From NCBI GenBank assembly GCA_018435125.1, contig JAHDNZ010000036.1:31014-95013 (forward strand): a DNA stretch of 64,000 nt. Direction: 5' to 3'. Both the position numbers and the translations under genes were made by a program. Positions 7,137 through 15,273 of the stretch are shown here, piece after piece. Under the pieces are notes generated by a model. The model had not been told where the DNA came from, did no database searches, and saw nothing but the letters and a program-made list of their open reading frames with translations. How positions within the stretch are numbered: position 1 is the stretch's first letter; each line of letters begins with the position of its first letter. The stretch comes from Bacillota bacterium (GTDB taxonomy: Bacteria; Bacillota; DTU065).

Positions 7137-7602
7137 TCATGTAGCCAACGGCATTCTAGGGCAGGAAGTCTCAATTACTCGATTAAAATACTTATACCAA
7201 AGACTAAGAAGCCACCGGCCATTTAACGAGTTGTTTCTTTGCATGGCTACCTTAACTATGACTCCGCCAAACAACCTCAAAAGGTTTCTCTTCCTTCGGT
7301 TCTTCTTTTGGCAATGCCGTTTAGCTCTAGCTGAAGGTGTTAGACCAAACTCGAAAGCGATTACTCGCATTTGATCGAAGAGCTGTTTTTTCTTAGTTAG
7401 GAGCGGATTTGGTATACTGTTGGTCTCTCCAGCCTTGTTGGCTTATTCAATTACAAATCCTTCTTTGCCGATGATCTCTGTAAATTCTTGGTAGCTGACA
7501 TAAACGTCTAAGTAGGTTGCTAGCATATCCACATAAACATTGGACATTAAGTCAACTTCCTGTAGCTCCTTCGCAATTCGGTTGAATGCTTTCTGTCTAA
7601 CA
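7137..7602 (-). pseudogene. Phage terminase small subunit (P27-family-like) remnant, N-terminally truncated and interrupted
   Basis: Minus-strand frame 7443-7602 reads ...KAFNRIAKELQEVDLMSNVYVDMLATYLDVYVSYQEFTEIIGKEGFVIE then a stop. The downstream ORF 7137-7370 begins with EFGLTPSARAK, which is the characteristic C-terminal motif of P27 terminase small subunits. The two pieces are broken by a stop or frame change. Confidence 0.4.
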
Positions 7603-7633
7603 ATCAACCCTTCTTTAATCTTATAGAATTTAG

Positions 7634-8150
7634 CTACTGTTTTAATCTGGAATACTGGTCATAGATCATGTGTGTCTCCATGTGGTCTTTGCAGTATTGG
7701 TACTCCGAAAACCGATTACATCCTATAGCTTTACCGGGTCTTAAAGCTTGTTTAAGCACATTGAAGAAGGAGTAGACCAACGTCTCTATCTTGCCGAGTA
7801 TATTCAGAATCTGACCATACATCCCATTCATCATATCTTCTCTTAATTAACCCTTCCAAAACTTTACCATTACTCCTTACCCATGATAAAAAATTCTTTA
7901 GTTCGACAGCAGCTGTCTTACCAGACTTTATAATCTTCCACATGTCCGACCTATCTATAATGTTTCCTATTCCAATATTAAATACAAAACTAACAATGGC
8001 GTCAAACTCCTGATGTTTTAGATCTACATTAATGGTCTCAAACAAGTCATTAGGTTCCTTTACTCTACTTTGAAGATCCTTCGTGAATAAATCCTTAGCA
8101 GCTTCAGGTGTAATACCGCGGGCGGAAACCCACTCACGCTGTATAACCAC
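7634..8150 (-). pseudogene. Phage-type lysozyme (GH24/Phage_lysozyme family) gene disrupted by a frameshift
   Basis: ORF 7752-8150 contains the QEFDAIVSFVFNIGIGN and GLIKRR motifs of phage lysozymes. The C-terminal continuation lies in another frame (7634-7834). No functional full-length frame. Confidence 0.55.
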
Positions 8151-8321
8151 TGTTTGTCCGACTATATTAATCGCTTGCAGGTGCGGAGATGGTCGCCGTG
8201 CGTGTAGTGGAGGAAACTGATAAGAAACAATGGAATGTAATTATGTATTTTCAAGTCAATACTACACACCATGTAAAGCAAAAAACTTTCCGTTGTCGAT
8301 TATCGTGAAAGCGAGGAAACT

Positions 8322-8909
8322 ATGAAAAAGCCTTTTGTTATCAGCATTTCTGGCATATCTGGCAGCGGTAAAACCACAATCGCTAACGCGCTGAAGAAAC
8401 GGGTTGCAAATACTGAAGTCATTAACTTCGATAATATTTCGGGAGATTTGCCCGGCCAAGATTACTGCGAATGGTCGGAATCAGGAGCAGACTGCAACGA
8501 ATGGATACTTACTCCAATAATTGATGAAATAGAGCGCTTATGCTCCGATCCGCTTGAATATATTGTTCTTGATTATCCCTTTGGGACAGCTCACCGTAAG
8601 GTTGGAGCATATGTAGATATTTCTGTTTGGATAGATATACCGCTTGATATATCACTTGCACGACGTATACTGCGTGACTTTACACGCTGCTCAAAAATAC
8701 GCCATCCACTAAAAGGACATGTAGCGGAAGAAGTATCATCATATCTTGATTATTACCTTGCTCGACATAGGGACACATATTTACGCCATATTGAAACAAT
8801 TAGACCATTTGTCGATTTAATTGTTGACGGTACAAATACGCCAGAAGAAATTACAGATGAGATATTGTCCTATATCAATACCCGTAACCATTTACGATGC
8901 CCTCATTGA
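8322..8909 (+). CDS. P-loop NTPase / small-molecule (nucleoside-type) kinase family protein
   Basis: N-terminal Walker A ISGISGSGKTT. About 195 aa. Noticeably higher GC than flanks. First gene of a tightly packed 4-gene cassette. Confidence 0.5.
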   Translation: MKKPFVISISGISGSGKTTIANALKKRVANTEVINFDNISGDLPGQDYCEWSESGADCNEWILTPIIDEIERLCSDPLEYIVLDYPFGTAHRKVGAYVDISVWIDIPLDISLARRILRDFTRCSKIRHPLKGHVAEEVSSYLDYYLARHRDTYLRHIETIRPFVDLIVDGTNTPEEITDEILSYINTRNHLRCPH

Positions 8910-9480
8910 TGAAATCAACGACCCCGTCTGCGACCCGGTACTGCTAAGAGAATATATGGACAAATGGGACGGCGAAGTATTCATTGAAGTACTGCAGTTT
9001 TCGCCGGACAAGACAGTTTTAGAAGTAGGCATTGGAACAGGGCGGCTTGCGGTGCGCATTTGCGGTAAATGCGAACGTTTCACCGGCATTGATATATCAC
9101 CGAAAACCATTGAGAGAGCAAAAGAAAACCTCCGGGGTTTTAATAACGTTTCTCTTATTTGCGGCAACTTTCTTACTTATCAGTTTAATGAGAGATTTGA
9201 TATAATCTACTCATCTCTCACTTTTATGCACATTCAGAATAAGCGAGCGGCAATTCAGAGAGCAGCAATCCTTCTTAATCCCGGTGGTCGGTTTGTATTG
9301 TCTATTGATAAAAACCAGCAGATGGAAATTGATTATGCAAGTGGCTATGGTAGTCGGAAAATTGTTGTTTATCCCGACACACCGGAGGAAATCACCGCTT
9401 TAATTACCGAAGCTGGATTAAATATCGAGAAACAATTTGAAACCGAGTTTGCTTTGATTATCACTGCAAGGAAAGGATGA
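8857..9480 (+). CDS. Class I SAM-dependent methyltransferase
   Basis: Motif I VLEVGIGTGRLA plus post-I acidic residue. Start is ambiguous: TTG 8821, ATG 8857 or ATG 8956. The 5' end overlaps the kinase gene in another frame. Confidence 0.55.
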   Translation: MRYCPISIPVTIYDALIDEINDPVCDPVLLREYMDKWDGEVFIEVLQFSPDKTVLEVGIGTGRLAVRICGKCERFTGIDISPKTIERAKENLRGFNNVSLICGNFLTYQFNERFDIIYSSLTFMHIQNKRAAIQRAAILLNPGGRFVLSIDKNQQMEIDYASGYGSRKIVVYPDTPEEITALITEAGLNIEKQFETEFALIITARKG

Positions 9481-10079
9481 TAAAAACCATGCATCTTGAA
9501 ATCAAGCCTCTAACCCCCGAACTTGCTGCTGATTTCTTTGACTTCTTCGAAAATCGAGCGTTCACAGATAATTCCCCATATCGGTGTTATTGCCAGTTCT
9601 ATCAAATGACCAAGGAACAGGAGAAAGCAGCGTTCGACAAAGTAGACGGGCCTGATATCGGTCGCGTGGCTCGAAAAGTAGCCGAGCGACAGATCGATTC
9701 AGGCATCCTGCAGGGATATCTTGCGTTTGCTGACGGCGTGACTATCGGCTGGTGCAACGCGAACGACAAAGCGAACTTTCCCATAGAATCGTGTACCGGT
9801 GAGCGTTTTTACGCGCCAGCCAAAAAGCGAGAAAAGGCCGTGGTGTGTTTCGAAATTGCCCCGGAATTTCGCGGGAAGGGTGTCGCCACCGCTCTTTTGC
9901 TGCGGGTCGTTGCCGACGCAAAAGCCGAAGGCTATATCGCCATCGAGGGTTTCCCCGTTGTGCGCAACAAACGATATGAATGGGATAACGCCGGCCCCAT
10001 TCGGTTATACGAAAAGGTCGGGTTTATAAAAGTAGCGGAAACGGAAAAAAATGCGGTCATGCGAAAGGAATTAAGATAA
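9477..10079 (+). CDS. GNAT family N-acetyltransferase
   Basis: Acetyl-CoA binding motif VCFEIAPEFRGKGVATALL. ATGA overlap with the methyltransferase stop. Higher-GC cassette. Confidence 0.7.
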   Translation: MIKTMHLEIKPLTPELAADFFDFFENRAFTDNSPYRCYCQFYQMTKEQEKAAFDKVDGPDIGRVARKVAERQIDSGILQGYLAFADGVTIGWCNANDKANFPIESCTGERFYAPAKKREKAVVCFEIAPEFRGKGVATALLLRVVADAKAEGYIAIEGFPVVRNKRYEWDNAGPIRLYEKVGFIKVAETEKNAVMRKELR

Positions 10080-10528
10080 TGAAATACGAATTTGATGCAG
10101 AAATCAAACGGCTTGAGGGTAAAATCCAGTGGAGCGTCTTTTATTTTCCCGAATCTGCTGTAGACTGTTTTGGCTCAAAGGGTAACATTCCTGTCAAAAT
10201 CATGGTGGATGGACACCCCTTTGAACACACGCTCTTGAGTTCTCGAAACGGACATTATCTCGTTTACAACGAATTTATTCGCCGCGCTGTCGGCAAAGAA
10301 ATGGGTGACAGTGTACACGTTACTTTGGAGAAAGACGAACAACCGAGAATTTTTACGGTTCCGGCTTATCTCGAAACGATTCTCAGGGATGGAGGCGTTT
10401 TGGAGACCTTTCTGAAACAGCCGGATTATTTGAAGCGCGAGCAAATCAACAAAATCGAATTGGCTAAGAAAGAAGAAACCAAGGCGAATCGGATTAAAAA
10501 GCTAATTACAGAGTTGGGAGATATCTAA
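10079..10528 (+). CDS. DUF1905 / YdeI-like domain protein
   Basis: TAATG overlap with the GNAT gene. Sequence pattern (KIQWSVFYFP...GNIPVKIMVDGHPFEHTLL) resembles the DUF1905 beta-barrel domain often fused or adjacent to YdeI/OmdA. Confidence 0.45.
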   Translation: MKYEFDAEIKRLEGKIQWSVFYFPESAVDCFGSKGNIPVKIMVDGHPFEHTLLSSRNGHYLVYNEFIRRAVGKEMGDSVHVTLEKDEQPRIFTVPAYLETILRDGGVLETFLKQPDYLKREQINKIELAKKEETKANRIKKLITELGDI

Positions 10529-10613
10529 AATGATTTGTCAAAACTGTAAGAAAAACATCCGCTAAATAGAGATATATGTCCCGATTGTCGGCTATCCTGT
10601 AAAACCAATCCCT

Positions 10614-10960
10614 GTGCCACCTGGTGGTAAAATCAACTTCGGCAACTTCGACTGGTTCGTGCCGTATATACAGGACGATAAGACGCTCATTATCACTGAG
10701 AAGGTAATCGAAAAGAGGATGTATCACAGTGAAGAAGCTTCCATCACATGGGAAACGTACGCTATGCGGAAATATCTGAACAGCGAGTTTTATAATTCGT
10801 TCAACGAAGCCGACTGCTAACAAGATATTTTTGCTGAGTATTAGTGAGATCCTCAAATATTATGGTGACAGCGGACAGATAAAAGCATGGTATATGTACC
10901 CGAATTGCGAATGATGCAAGGATAAGTTTTTGCCGTGGATTGATGACCAATAACATCAAC
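10614..10960 (+). pseudogene. DUF6273-like domain gene fragment, frameshifted
   Basis: Frame 10614-10820 reads ...ITWETYAMRKYLNSEFYNSFNEADC. The continuation ...KIFLLSISEILKYYGDSGQIKAWYMYPNCE lies in a different frame. No start context and no intact ORF. Confidence 0.4.
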
Positions 10961-10985
10961 CGCCACGCTGTGGAAGTAAAAAGAA

Positions 10986-11025
10986 CCCCTGCTAGAAGTG
11001 CAGGGGTATTTGTTATTTATTTATT
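10986..11025. terminator. Bidirectional Rho-independent terminator
   Basis: CCCCTGC tagaagt GCAGGGG hairpin (10986-11006) with a T-rich tract on the plus side and TTCTTTTT on the minus side. Lies between convergent units. Confidence 0.7.
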
Positions 11026-11767
11026 CCGTGCTTTCAAAACGCTCATTCATAATTAAATTTCTACAGTAAGTATATTCATCATCCCCGCAACCTTGCAAAA
11101 TTATCACATCTTCGCTATATGACTTTACACTCCAAAAAATCCCTTGATCTTTTATTGAACAAGATCCGGTATGAAAATTAGAAGAATCGACATCAGGTAT
11201 AATTACATCTTCACCCAGAAAGGAATAGAACCCACAATATGGTTCACTATTGTCTTGATAGTTTCTAATTCGAAAATATTGTCGTCCTCCGAATAGTCCT
11301 TTATCACAAGAAACAGTAACAGATGCTCCGCAGTAAATGTTTTCATCCTTGTTTCGAAGTAGAAAAACAAACTCCAGCTTATTGGTATTCATTGTAAAGA
11401 ACATCTCATCTTCAGATACCGTTGGCATATATCTATCAGGAGCTGCCAAACAGATTATGTCTTTTCTTAAATACGCTGATAAATCAACAGTCTGAAAACT
11501 TCGATTAAGTCTTTGTTTTAGCTTGAAATTATTACCAGAAGCTTCTCCAAGTGAATTAATAAATGCATATCCTGTAGCTGCTTCACTTTGATAGCGTTCA
11601 CAAATGCCGATCAGTTTATGTTCGGTACTATCTCCAATATATAATGCTGCTCCGAGAATATCATTGTCCAAATTATATAGTTCAAAAACAAATTGACGAG
11701 TTATTACTAGCTCTCTATTAGAAGATGAATACACCCCATATGGTATTGTGTGATTCATTTTTCTCAC
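11021..11767 (-). CDS. Hypothetical cytoplasmic Cys-rich protein (about 248 aa), no recognisable domain
   Basis: AGGAGGTGA RBS 5 nt upstream of ATG. No signal peptide. Several Cys residues in the C-terminal half. Island context. Confidence 0.5.
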   Translation of the reverse strand: MRKMNHTIPYGVYSSSNRELVITRQFVFELYNLDNDILGAALYIGDSTEHKLIGICERYQSEAATGYAFINSLGEASGNNFKLKQRLNRSFQTVDLSAYLRKDIICLAAPDRYMPTVSEDEMFFTMNTNKLEFVFLLRNKDENIYCGASVTVSCDKGLFGGRQYFRIRNYQDNSEPYCGFYSFLGEDVIIPDVDSSNFHTGSCSIKDQGIFWSVKSYSEDVIILQGCGDDEYTYCRNLIMNERFESTE

Positions 11768-12251
11768 CTCCTAGCAACAAATATCTAGAAATTTGCTCTT
11801 TACAAACTAAATAGTCTTGGTTTTCCCTTCTTGTCCAGCTTTTTACTTTGCTACAACTAATAGTTATGTTTTTGCACAAGTAATCTTTCCAATATTAGTT
11901 CAATAAAAGATGGTCTTAACAAGTATAAAACAGCATTAAGATAAGCTAACACCTTAGCTAAATTTCCATCAACCTAGTTTAGCTTTTCTACCATCTTCGT
12001 TTAGTAACTGACGTGGATGTTAATTTTCTTAAAATAGAGAACTCTAATGTTTCTTGCCATGAATTAGACAGTTGAGTTCGTCCCCTTGCCTATTTCCTAA
12101 AAACTCAATGTTTCGGTTTGAACAGGTTTAGCTAATTAAGGGTATTCATTTCCATCTTCTTTCTATAAACAACTTTTAGGCAGGAATATACATTCCTTTA
12201 TCTAAAGATCAATATGGTACATTTTTACCAGCAAACAAGGAGTTGAATTCC

Positions 12252-12881
12252 ATGGATATCAGTGGCCTTTTATCTTTGACATATATGTTAGCATATCTAG
12301 AAATCAAAAACCCTCAGAATAAACAGCTAAATAATATGTTTACTTCTTTATCTAAAACTCGGATTGCAGTAGTTGGTGCAATCTCAGGGTTTTTGGTGCC
12401 ACTGGCTATATGTCTGCCCGCTTTATTGTATTTAGGAGCTGGTTTTTTATATACAATTATGGCTGAAACTCTAATCCCTGGAATAACAGGATTTCAAGGC
12501 GAACCCTTTACAAACATATTTACGCAAAACCTTAGTTTTTTTAGCCAGATACTGGTTTTAATTCTAAAATATACAGCTCTGCCATCAATATTAATGGGTT
12601 TATGTGATATTACTTTGCGTCACAGATTTTTTAATAACCCCCAAAATAATGTATGGCCGTGGCTTTACAAACATTGTGCAGCCCCTATTTCTGCTTTTTT
12701 TATTATTATATCTATTTTAACATGGTCCTCTCGGAAAGCGATGTTTGGCATAGCCGGCTTGTTAGTTATCAACAGTCTTCCAGCTGTTTTTTTGGGATTA
12801 CTATACCGAGGTATTCTGCTTGCAACACTAGACAAGCAATTACTCATAATAACCAAATTTAAAAACCTTAGGTCTAGTTAG
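12252..12881 (+). CDS. Hypothetical polytopic membrane protein
   Basis: AAGGAG 10 nt upstream of ATG 12252. The TTG at 12243 in the track is too close to the RBS. Five to six predicted hydrophobic helices. Confidence 0.5.
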   Translation: MDISGLLSLTYMLAYLEIKNPQNKQLNNMFTSLSKTRIAVVGAISGFLVPLAICLPALLYLGAGFLYTIMAETLIPGITGFQGEPFTNIFTQNLSFFSQILVLILKYTALPSILMGLCDITLRHRFFNNPQNNVWPWLYKHCAAPISAFFIIISILTWSSRKAMFGIAGLLVINSLPAVFLGLLYRGILLATLDKQLLIITKFKNLRSS

Positions 12882-13186
12882 AACTCAGTTAACCATTTTC
12901 ACTAATATGCATACCAACTAATACTAAACTGAGAGCTTCTCCTTATAAGAGTTGGTAACTAAATTGTTATCGTCTTGATTGTGTGTAAGTTTTCAAATTA
13001 TCTGACTTAATCTTTGGACTATGTTCCTAGCACGTCTTTATTCATTGTTTAACTGAAAAAAGAAGTGTAATCTTCTATCATTTGACCTTCGGTGATTGTT
13101 GCGATTGCTGCTTTCTTTCTTAAGATTGATGAGACTGCAAATATCGGTAAGACCATGTCCAAAATGTCTTTAAAAAAGTAGCTTCC

Positions 13187-13225
13187 CCCTATTACAGGGA
13201 AAAGCTACTTTATTAATATTTAAAG
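13187..13225. terminator. Rho-independent terminator (serves the small minus-strand peptide gene; bidirectional shape)
   Basis: AAAAAAGTAGCTTCCCC ctattaca GGGAAAAGCTACTTTATTAATATTT. Confidence 0.6.
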
Positions 13226-13242
13226 AGGGATTTTACCCTGCT

Positions 13243-13344
13243 TTACCAACCGCATCCGCCGCCGTTCATAGTCATAATGACCAAAAGAATCAGTATTAAA
13301 AACAAGCCTGCTGCTTCTTGGCCATTTGAAGCCTTATCTACCAT
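13243..13344 (-). CDS. Small hydrophobic peptide, 33 aa (MVDKASNGQEAAGLFLILILLVIMTMNGGGCGW), YjcZ-like
   Basis: Below the ORF-track cutoff, found by eye. GGGAGG RBS 8 nt upstream of ATG 13344. The terminator hairpin lies 20 nt past the stop. Architecture is a hydrophobic core with a Gly/Cys-rich tail, as in YjcZ-family sporulation peptides. Confidence 0.45.
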   Translation of the reverse strand: MVDKASNGQEAAGLFLILILLVIMTMNGGGCGW

Positions 13345-13597
13345 AGCTGATCCTCCCTTCTAGAAAGGTTACTATAACTTATGCTGCGTTTTCAAAATCG
13401 CCATGAACTATTTAACTCATCTTATTGTTTTTTTAAAACCTGCCATCGAGTTCTAGAAGAGATTACCGGATTTCTAAAACTGAAGTTAGTACCTTTAATG
13501 TTCTGCTGATTTTCTCAAGACCTTTAACCTTGAAAAAACACAACTTTTGCAGGTCAAATTGTTTTTATGTCCAAATCCATCTACAGGAGGGAGCCAA

Positions 13598-14422
13598 ATG
13601 AAGCTAGCAGAGATAGTTGTGGAAAATGTAAGGAGTTTTAAAAAACTATTAAAAATTGACTTTACCGATCACTACACCGGTTTACCTAATGATCGTTTGG
13701 TTATTGTAGGTACTAATGCCTCTGGTAAAACTACACTTTTAGAAATAACTATTTCACTCTTAAAAGCTTTTTATCATGAGCAAGATTCTCTCTATAAGGA
13801 ACTTAGCTCAGCCGGAGTAGCTACCAAGGTGGTTTTTCTAGATCAAAACGATAACCGGCTTGCTCTTGAACTTAAAGATGGCAGGCTTTCACTAGAAGGT
13901 AAGAGTGAGCTTTTACCCTTTTATTTGTATTTCCCGGCGGAGCGCTATTTTTCTGAGCCAGCTCAATCAGAGCCAATAAAAATAAACCCTTGGGGCTATG
14001 AGTATAAAAACGGAGAAGAATACTTTACTAACTATTTAGATAATAGCTTTTCTGAGTTAGCCACCCGTTTTTTTTCAGGACGTATACTGGCTAAAACAGA
14101 TGATCAGTACACACTATCGGCTTCTGCCAACGATCCCACCCCGATACCATTAAAAAGACTACCTTCTGGCGAAAAGCAAGCCTTAATTTTGCTTACGATC
14201 ATTGCTAAGCATCTTAAAAGGAGATCGCTGGTGATGATTGATGAATTTGAACTTAGCCTTCATCCTACAGCTCAAAGAAAGCTTTACTATCTTCTCAGTG
14301 CTTATCTTAAAGAGAGAGATTCGCAACTAATTGTGGCCACTCATTCTCTAGAAATTGTCCGTGCATCCCTGGAAACAGAAGTTTTTAGTCTAGACGAAAT
14401 CTTAGGGGGGCTAAAGACATGA
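13598..14422 (+). CDS. AAA_21/ABC-type ATPase (AriA/AbiLi-like), short form, about 274 aa
   Basis: GGAGGG RBS 6 nt before ATG 13598. RecF/SMC-like N-terminal strand MKLAEIVVENVRSFKK, Walker A GTNASGKTT, signature-like LPSGEKQAL, Walker B/H-loop VMIDEFELSLHP (the DEPE..LHP hallmark of AAA_21). Confidence 0.65.
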   Translation: MKLAEIVVENVRSFKKLLKIDFTDHYTGLPNDRLVIVGTNASGKTTLLEITISLLKAFYHEQDSLYKELSSAGVATKVVFLDQNDNRLALELKDGRLSLEGKSELLPFYLYFPAERYFSEPAQSEPIKINPWGYEYKNGEEYFTNYLDNSFSELATRFFSGRILAKTDDQYTLSASANDPTPIPLKRLPSGEKQALILLTIIAKHLKRRSLVMIDEFELSLHPTAQRKLYYLLSAYLKERDSQLIVATHSLEIVRASLETEVFSLDEILGGLKT

Positions 14423-15273
14423 GCTACTTATCATTAGATCAACTGCTCCTTAGAATCCGCTCTGGGAAGGGACTAGCTATAGTCATTGAAGGCATTAAAA
14501 ACGGTGATGATGAGTGGGTATACTCCCAGTGGTTTGGTAATTTAGCTCATTTAGTAACTTTTTACCCCCAGGATGGTTATAGCCGTGTCTATGATGCGGT
14601 TGAAAATCTCAGAAATAAAAGCCCTCACAAACTTATTGCCGGCATTATCGATCGTGACTTCGCAACTGAAATTGAAGTTAAAGCACAGTTTGAAGCAGAT
14701 TATGCGCAACATGTCTATCGCACTAAACGTTATACCTTAGAAAATTATCTTTTAGAACCGGAAGGTTGGCTAGAGATAGCCTCTCTTTTTTGGCGTCATA
14801 AACATCCTGTGGGTTTTCGAACTTTGGAAGAATGCAGCCAAACTATTGAGTTGGTTTTTAAATCATTTTTACCTGCTGCAGCTTATAATTGGCTTGTCTG
14901 GGATTTAGGGCAAAAATACGGGCCCAAATATTATCTGAATTATAAAGACACTCCTAATCTAGATCCGGAAAAACTTTATTTTGATCTTCGTATCTACTGC
15001 CAAAGAGAAGGTCTGCCTAGTCCTGATGAATATGAATTAAGACTTAATCTCCTTCGAAGGAAAAAAGAGCTCTGGCATCAAAAGGTTAGTGGCAAAATGG
15101 TTTTTAATTATCTGATCGAAAACATTCCGGTTCCTAGAAGCCGCCCGGATAAACATCTTTTTATAAACTATTATGTATCCAGAACGGAAGCTCCAAAAGA
15201 GCTAAACCGCCTGGTTAATTTTCTGATCACTAAATATCTTAAGGAAGCATCTCTTGCCAAGAGTGCAATCTAG
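14419..15273 (+). CDS. DUF4435/Toprim-like protein (AriB/OLD-C-terminal-like), putative nuclease partner
   Basis: ATGA overlap with the ATPase stop. Acidic motifs VIEGIKNGDDEWVY and GIIDRDF are compatible with the Toprim E...DxD pattern of DUF4435. About 284 aa, matching the typical size of that family. Confidence 0.45.
   Translation: MSYLSLDQLLLRIRSGKGLAIVIEGIKNGDDEWVYSQWFGNLAHLVTFYPQDGYSRVYDAVENLRNKSPHKLIAGIIDRDFATEIEVKAQFEADYAQHVYRTKRYTLENYLLEPEGWLEIASLFWRHKHPVGFRTLEECSQTIELVFKSFLPAAAYNWLVWDLGQKYGPKYYLNYKDTPNLDPEKLYFDLRIYCQREGLPSPDEYELRLNLLRRKKELWHQKVSGKMVFNYLIENIPVPRSRPDKHLFINYYVSRTEAPKELNRLVNFLITKYLKEASLAKSAI

Follow-up and report, generated by a model that had tools for sequence, protein, structure and literature searches.

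The 64,000-nucleotide (nt) stretch analysed here, referred to as the window, belongs to a Bacillota bacterium of the DTU065 lineage (contig JAHDNZ010000036.1, positions 31,014 to 95,013 of the forward strand). On its minus strand it carries a small gene for a 33 amino acid (aa) long hydrophobic peptide, which, judged from its sequence, is a member of a so far undescribed multi-copy family of ~30-aa peptides. The gene has its own Shine-Dalgarno (SD) sequence, a promoter box that is conserved in the family and an intrinsic terminator, and two further genes lie divergently to it (Table 1). A sequence-only reading had proposed an unannotated small gene with complete expression signals at this site. 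This proposal holds: the SD sequence and the terminator are present, the encoded peptide is exactly the one it had given, and the gene proved to be conserved under purifying selection.

Table 1. Features of the small peptide gene and its divergent neighbours (nucleotide positions are those of the window)
Feature	Position	Strand	Remark
Coding sequence, 33 aa and stop codon, MVDKASNGQEAAGLFLILILLVIMTMNGGGCGW	13243..13344	-	translation
Polar N-terminus of the peptide	residues 1-10
Conserved hydrophobic core of the peptide	residues 11-26
Gly-rich tail of the peptide, Trp-ending	residues 27-33
Shine-Dalgarno sequence GGGAGG	13352..13357	-	7-nt spacer to ATG at 13344
-10 promoter element GCATAAGTTA	13375..13384	-	part of the family-wide CATA-N3/4-TATA box
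Expected sigma-K -35 position ('AC', 17 nt upstream of CATA)	13399..13407	-	window reads TTCATGGCG
Predicted transcription start	13369..13371	-	~13 nt downstream of the C of CATA; inferred from spacing
Intrinsic terminator	13172..13211	-	17-bp stem, 3-nt loop, T-run; folding and terminator scan
AAA_15/AAA_21 ATPase, 274 aa	13598-14422	+	divergent; PADLOC AriA E 7e-24, AbiLi E 3e-20
DUF4435 protein, 284 aa	14419-15273	+	divergent; AriB E 9e-10

The ribosome binding site had been recognized correctly, but its spacer to the start codon is one nucleotide shorter than the 8 nt that had been counted. A terminator hairpin had likewise been placed at 13187-13225, starting 20 nt after the stop codon. 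The hairpin exists and is strong, but it is displaced by ~12 nt, and its stem begins 31 nt past the stop codon. Its two arms (13211-13195 and 13191-13175) pair around a loop at 13194-13192, and the T-run occupies 13177-13172. The 76-nt segment behind the stop codon folds with -33.4 kcal/mol (z = -6.5), which none of 200 shuffles reached, and the terminator scan returned two matches against 0.3 expected. Because A- and T-tracts flank the stem, the terminator is potentially bidirectional. The transcription start was placed by the spacing between -10 elements and mapped starts in Clostridioides difficile sigma-K promoters (PMC7438776, Table S6), which predicts a 5'-untranslated region (UTR) of ~26 nt. 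The predicted transcript is a monocistronic mRNA of ~200 nt that begins near 13370 and ends at the terminator (13172), and it would encode a 33-residue single-helix integral membrane peptide. No competing long open reading frame (ORF) overlaps the gene on either strand, and the other five reading frames are closed both here and at the homologous locus L007. With its SD sequence, terminator and conserved promoter box, the gene is an autonomous unit that moves between genomic contexts, as the neighbouring genes differ from locus to locus.

That the ORF is a real protein-coding gene is almost certain from sequence comparison. The exact 33-aa peptide was called by gene callers on 23 public contigs, and a 32-aa variant with one Gly fewer exists. 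In the related locus L002 (90% backbone identity over 6.6 kb), the ORF differs by three substitutions, all of which are third-position and synonymous; in contrast, the spacer toward the divergent neighbour is scrambled. The 5' arm of the terminator carries two substitutions in L002 (TC to CT), and both still pair with G (U-G to C-G and C-G to U-G). A phmmer search that was exhaustive over 1.84 billion representatives yielded one true match, P0002 (33 aa, MATASDGQSAATLFLILILLVIMTMSGGKGGLW), and the top-ranking match, P0001, was discarded as a spurious repeat protein. The gene for P0002 (locus L007) resides in an unrelated gene context, its product shares 76% aa identity with the window peptide, and the ratio of nonsynonymous to synonymous substitution rates (dN/dS) between the two genes is ~0.17. 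Their 13-codon hydrophobic cores are separated by seven synonymous codon changes and no amino acid change, and across 19 distinct copies of the family each invariant residue is encoded by two to five different codons. These comparisons show purifying selection on the encoded protein, most strongly on the helix, and the conservation and codon-substitution check that had been suggested earlier therefore came out in favour of the gene: the frame is kept in the relatives.

Two minor observations concern the same loci. A 9-bp hairpin that includes the stop codon (13221-13245, minus strand; UAAAG.AGGG…CCCUCUUUA) lies ahead of the main terminator, and its single substitution in L002 keeps the pairing. 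The contigs bearing P0002 (L007-L011 and L014, from five assemblies) all stop 40-90 nt past the small gene, which suggests that in that organism the gene is directly followed by a repeat or mobile element that interrupts the assembly.

Further copies of the gene were found by back-translating the core and scanning 185,579 species genomes and, in addition, metagenomes. The genome scan returned 13 loci, all in metagenome-assembled genomes (MAGs), and the metagenome scan returned 20. In shuffles of the window, zero occurrences of the pattern are expected, and the window itself holds one family copy only. Some 20 relatives make up the family as now defined, and in the family alignment (A3) the core reads AA-x-LFLILILLVI-x-TM, with invariant positions A11, L14-I23, T25 and M26. 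It is preceded by a variable, polar or acidic N-terminus and followed by a Gly-rich tail of 4-8 residues that ends with W, F, Y, M or C. Most peptides are 29-35 aa long, and the second gene in each tandem array encodes ~48 aa. The layout of polar N-terminus, hydrophobic core and Gly-rich tail had been described correctly for the window peptide, but the Cys that had been counted as a feature of the tail is not conserved in the family. No Pfam-A or NCBIfam model matches the window peptide or any of 19 members at E<=10, and the core motif had no match in a full-text literature search; as a family, these peptides are so far undescribed.

The hosts are uncultured anaerobic Bacillota, including organisms from anaerobic digesters, and Halanaerobiales MAGs. 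A Firmicutes UBA4881 MAG contains four dispersed copies and AS05jafATM_29 contains three, whereas four tandem genes are present in Bacillota STF2_155 (L013) and three in Clostridia DTU065 (L024). Further hosts in the genome scan are UBA5301, CTOTU4017 and two Halanaerobiales MAGs. Apart from four unrelated signal-peptide-like matches (see below), the metagenome matches represent the same family types and stem mostly from fermentation and bioreactor samples. Viral contigs, phage records and plasmid records yielded no copy, in a search whose tblastn part is weak and may be affected by masking of the core by the low-complexity filter. A strong SD sequence precedes every member with an identified start, except the second gene of each tandem array, and other members likewise end in a hairpin terminator, which follows the single gene or the last gene of an array.

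The tandem arrays of three to four genes are located at 5991-6520 of L013 and at 1456-1841 of L024, both on the minus strand, and the same arrays recur in L028, L036, L041, L043 and L044. In every array the product of the second gene is extended at its N-terminus by ~25 aa (…NPSY..E.EAG..RR…). The second gene begins directly at the stop codon of the first or overlaps it, an arrangement that points to coupled translation. The 5'-UTR of the arrays contains a perfect small hairpin between the CATA box and the SD sequence (CCTTCC-TAA-GGAAGG in L024).

P0002 and P0005, which were retrieved by profile- and word-based searches, carry the same core. The word search used a concatenated 66-aa query, which retrieved P0005 and P0006 alone and none of the 33-aa members themselves. 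A search of the available DNA with a hidden Markov model (HMM) of the family added a single divergent paralog, L021b (…GGGGVAVIFLILILLLLGTSGF), with 21 bits. This paralog (MGDFLSTEGYGGGGVAVIFLILILLLLGTSGFHSK) lies at ~354-461 of L021 on the plus strand, ~100 nt downstream of a canonical Halanaerobiales copy, and has its own SD sequence. Four metagenome loci (L032, L035, L039 and L042) have the 13-residue string LFLILILLVILTM in unrelated ORFs that are longer or resemble signal peptides (e.g., MMRKLLFLILILLVILTMFGVESANPR), so the core alone is not diagnostic, and the AA-x flank, the Gly tail and the peptide size are needed as well.

The peptide very probably forms a membrane helix. AlphaFold2, supplied with a 4-sequence family alignment, predicts a single helix of 22 residues (residues 7-28) with a predicted local distance difference test (pLDDT) score of 93 in the core. 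Its Kyte-Doolittle hydropathy reaches 2.9 across 16 residues; the peptide carries a net charge of -1, and its tail reads GGGCGW. The helix would insert into a membrane and act via specific helix-helix packing, either by self-assembly or with a conserved membrane partner. Such packing would explain the invariance of the core, and a 13-residue stretch that is invariant across distant lineages implies a very specific helix-packing function.

In its design the family resembles YjcZ, the sporulation peptide with which the window peptide had initially been compared. Both comprise peptides of less than 50 aa with one near-invariant Leu/Ile/Val-rich helix, Gly-rich flanks and Cys or aromatic residues, and both occur as several paralogs per genome, often in tandem and each with its own SD sequence and terminator. 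YjcZ genes are multi-copy, and B. cereus contains at least six YjcZ paralogs (PMC8313275). Both groups of hosts are Bacillota that encode Spo0A, which is also encoded in the genome of the window (Pfam Spo0A_C). B. subtilis yjcZ has been assigned to the sigma-K regulon (PMC517825), and most clostridial members of the new family carry a sigma-K-type promoter pattern. Besides the core, which is compared below, the two differ in their termini and hosts. The N-terminus of the new family is acidic or polar (D/E/N/S/Q), whereas that of YjcZ is rich in G, Y and C, with the Halanaerobiales members as an exception to this rule. The tail of the new family is much shorter (4-8 aa), and its hosts are uncultured digester anaerobes and Halanaerobiales, while YjcZ is found in Bacillales.

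The -10 element of the window gene matches the sigma-K -10 consensus GCATANNNTA (PMC3416734) at ten of ten positions and is kept in L002 and in L023, where the surrounding intergenic DNA diverges. A CATA-N3/4-TATA box is present in 9 of 13 transcription units of the family (shuffles: mean 0.12, max 1). In seven units its position relative to the start codon is fixed (-40 to -43 nt), in the two tandem-array units it lies at ~-61, and the upstream regions that bear it are otherwise unalignable. For calibration, experimentally supported C. difficile promoters were used, comprising 27 sigma-K and 33 sigma-E promoters (PMC7438776, Table S6). The sigma-K composite pattern AC-N15-18-[CA]ATA-N3-4-TA is found in 22 of the 27 sigma-K promoters, in none of the 33 sigma-E promoters and in 7 of 11 family units (shuffles: mean 0.57, max 4 of 500). 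In contrast, the sigma-E-type pattern ATA-N15-17-[CA]ATA fits 5 of 27 sigma-K promoters, 24 of 33 sigma-E promoters and a single family unit out of 11, which is the chance level. Apart from the CATA-N3/4-TATA box, the strict B. subtilis -10 consensus sequences for sigma-K, -E, -G and -F were not enriched in the upstream regions of the family. A conserved GTCATAGAGC block was considered as a sigma-E-type -35 element and rejected, as it is separated from CATA by 20 nt versus ~16 nt in the sigma-E promoters of C. difficile and B. subtilis. Sporulation genes were also sought in the window for promoter calibration, and only housekeeping genes were present, such as gmk, yicC, coaE and mgsA. Together, the promoter patterns tentatively suggest that the gene is expressed during sporulation under sigma-K control, an assignment that we hold to be somewhat more doubtful than not.

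If so, the clostridial members would require sigma-K, the late mother-cell factor, for their transcription, and the peptide would appear at a late stage of sporulation, as a functional analogue, not a detectable homologue, of the YjcZ/Tiny_TM_bacill peptides. The overall reading as a conserved one-helix membrane peptide of a new family, with YjcZ-like design and late sigma-K expression, appears evenly balanced to us. Several points weigh against it. The window copy has GG at 13402-13401 and no AC at -35, and this degenerate -35 region makes both promoter strength and sigma assignment uncertain; the close relative L002 reads TTCATACCT at this position, with AC at the correct spacing. The strict literature consensus AC-N16-17-CATA-N3-TA fits 2 of 11 units only, the units at L012, L013 and L018 do not match the sigma-K composite, and two Halanaerobiales copies carry TATAAT-type boxes instead. 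The composite pattern was partly tuned after the family had been seen, and the promoters of the family share ancestry, which means that the units counted above are not independent. The strictly hydrophobic stretch of the peptide spans just 13-16 residues. The invariance of the core among the scanned loci exists partly by construction, as the scan pattern required the core, and the core does vary in the divergent paralog L021b. Finally, the proposed mechanism is generic.

A more specific version of this idea takes the family as an independently evolved, convergent counterpart of YjcZ, with sigma-K-controlled peptides whose invariant helix clostridial-type spore formers would place in a spore membrane or coat interface, possibly together with a linked GDSL/SGNH hydrolase. 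We regard this version as improbable; if true, it would point to a general need for 'tiny transmembrane (TM)' peptides in late spore assembly that is met by unrelated sequences in different lineages. Very small, membrane-associated sporulation peptides that are expressed in the mother cell are exemplified by SpoVM and CmpA, and the new family would share these properties if the tentative prediction of its expression is right. SpoVM, the product of a single-copy gene, binds surfaces as an amphipathic helix and has no sequence or compositional similarity to the new family.

The GDSL/SGNH hydrolases also figure in a serious alternative to the sporulation reading, according to which the peptide is a vegetative small membrane protein that serves as an accessory subunit or regulator, for example of such a hydrolase, and has no role in sporulation. 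A divergent gene for a 450-515-aa GDSL/SGNH hydrolase is the sole recurrent neighbour of the family and was found at 5 of the 13 genome loci in four MAGs (L012, L013, L018, L020 and L024). These hydrolases are 30-55% identical to each other, and one MAG contains two separate pairs of peptide and GDSL gene. The sigma-A-like TATAAT boxes of the Halanaerobiales copies and the lack of a sigma-K -35 element in the window copy also fit a vegetative gene. On the other hand, a GDSL neighbour is absent from the window and seven other loci, and the linkage may be plain ancestral synteny. Furthermore, the conserved CATA box is not a feature of sigma-A promoters, and 4 of 11 'TATAnn' boxes lack the critical T6. 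On balance, a purely vegetative function is unlikely, if less so than the other alternatives considered below. As a side observation, L024 carries a second GDSL paralog.

The sequence-only reading had placed the peptide close to the YjcZ family itself, and descent from the YjcZ/Tiny_TM_bacill superfamily, followed by extreme divergence, would account for the common architecture, the multi-copy or tandem organization and the parallel between the sigma-K-type promoters. The Halanaerobiales members even have YjcZ-like GYGGYG N-termini, and hhalign matches …ILLVI of one core to …ILLII of the other without a shift (pairwise E 0.0013). The hhalign probability is only 18%, however, over 17 columns. 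Annotated 'YjcZ family sporulation proteins' carry PF09680/TIGR01732, and not PF13990, which had been named as the model to search; the curated models have no match at E<=10 in the 19 members. A YjcZ HMM was built from 34 annotated YjcZ proteins (alignment A4) and run without filters. The scores of the new family have a median of -1.1 bits and do not exceed 6.2 bits, which is within the range of the segment-shuffled controls (95th percentile 7.6, max 13.5 bits). In the reciprocal search, the family HMM scores YjcZ proteins at -1 bits or below. L021b does not bridge the two families, as it reaches 4.9 bits with the YjcZ HMM. The invariant motifs differ as well: YjcZ has the core GFALIVVLFILLIIVGA (G-F-A-L-I-V-V-L-F-I-L-L-I-I-V-G-A; F33, V38-I45 and G47 are invariant in A4), which is not present in the new family with its motif AATLFLILILLVIMTM. 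Thus, relatedness to YjcZ was not detectable by any of the sequence tests, and common ancestry seems improbable to us. Of the earlier comparison the YjcZ-like design stands, joined by the multi-copy habit and, in most clostridial members, the sigma-K-type promoter, but membership in the YjcZ family does not.

The remaining alternatives fare worse. A small membrane toxin had been mentioned earlier, and a type I toxin-like or other membrane-depolarising peptide, whose gene is kept in a defence or variable region and regulated by an antisense RNA, would agree with the small size, the hydrophobicity and the strong terminator, as well as with the position next to a PARIS-like AriA/AriB pair and to indel hot-spots. 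Type I toxins such as the Fst/Ldr-like peptides, TxpA, BsrG and those of C. difficile are likewise 30-50 aa long, form a single hydrophobic helix, are expressed from a short terminator-bounded transcript and are often sited in variable or defence regions. In contrast to these toxins, the gene described here has no sign of an antisense RNA, of a fold that sequesters the SD sequence or of a basic C-terminal tail. No promoter-like site on the plus strand faces the ORF, no Rfam small RNA (sRNA) scored above threshold and only sub-threshold terminator-like matches were returned, and the mRNA is essentially unstructured (fold z = -0.9) with a strong and exposed SD sequence. A conserved anti-SD hairpin in the 5'-UTR was considered and rejected as negligible, the consensus stem reaching only -1 kcal/mol. 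The net charge is -1, and the family forms arrays of three to four paralogs with an abutting or overlapping second start and probably coupled translation, which is not a toxin-antitoxin layout. It also lacks copies in the phage, plasmid and viral records searched. A toxin is therefore very unlikely.

We consider it more unlikely still that the gene encodes a secreted-peptide precursor, i.e., a leaderless or multi-peptide bacteriocin, a ribosomally synthesized and post-translationally modified peptide (RiPP) or a pheromone. Tandem short genes with variable termini recall multi-peptide bacteriocin operons, and some tails contain Cys or Trp. The closest parallel is provided by leaderless bacteriocins of the aureocin A70 type, which are encoded in a four-gene operon and are cationic, amphipathic and secreted, with dedicated transport and immunity genes. 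The new family shares with them the tandem operons of three to four ~30-aa peptides, but its core is uniformly hydrophobic and its charge neutral or acidic. The conserved part, an extremely hydrophobic, non-amphipathic and uncharged helix, is neither a leader nor a cationic core, and the Cys is not conserved. No transporter or other export gene, C39 peptidase, immunity gene, radical S-adenosylmethionine (SAM) enzyme or other maturase recurs near the family genes, whose neighbours are housekeeping, GDSL, transposase and defence genes of unrelated kinds, and PADLOC, Pfam and NCBIfam gave no match to a bacteriocin family. These results speak against the bacteriocin-like peptide that had been offered as a further possibility.

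The two divergent genes on the plus strand form a PARIS/AbiL-like two-gene defence module (13598-15273), in which stop and start codons overlap. Besides the window, the peptide gene adjoins such a pair in L002/L005 and, among more distantly related loci, in L022/L023 (UBA5301/UBA4881); between L023 and the window, identity is 82% for peptide and promoter and 67% for the pair. That the peptide is a third component of this system, a divergently transcribed sensor or effector, is barely credible, because all pair-bearing loci (window, L001-L006 and L022/L023) are syntenic and share the same flanking 390-aa gene and Spo0A, most members lie elsewhere without the pair, which is absent beside the copies in L007-L021 and L024, and the peptide itself has no PADLOC match. 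The neighbours of the other members are unrelated and include DUF998, FolD, DegV, a Mutator transposase and an ArsB fragment.

Small proteins of less than 50 aa are systematically missed or remain unnamed, and the family described here is a cleanly supported example. Its alignment can seed an HMM for the annotation of such genes. If the suggested link to sigma-K holds, the family would offer a second, sequence-unrelated system for asking what YjcZ-type 'tiny TM' peptides do in spores. The current understanding of pathways is not changed by this finding.

In the alternatives offered earlier, the peptide had also been described as carried by an island. Comparison with related strains revealed two indels on its downstream side: positions 7148-12720 of the window are missing in L002, and 11958-13109 are missing in L006. 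The gene and its terminator lie just outside both, in the conserved backbone. The segment 7148-12720 encodes a phage-type lysozyme, a kinase, a methyltransferase, a GNAT protein, a DUF1905 protein, a 248-aa orphan and most of a 212-aa multi-TM orphan. Both indels end near the terminator of the peptide gene, which suggests a recombination hot-spot downstream of the gene.

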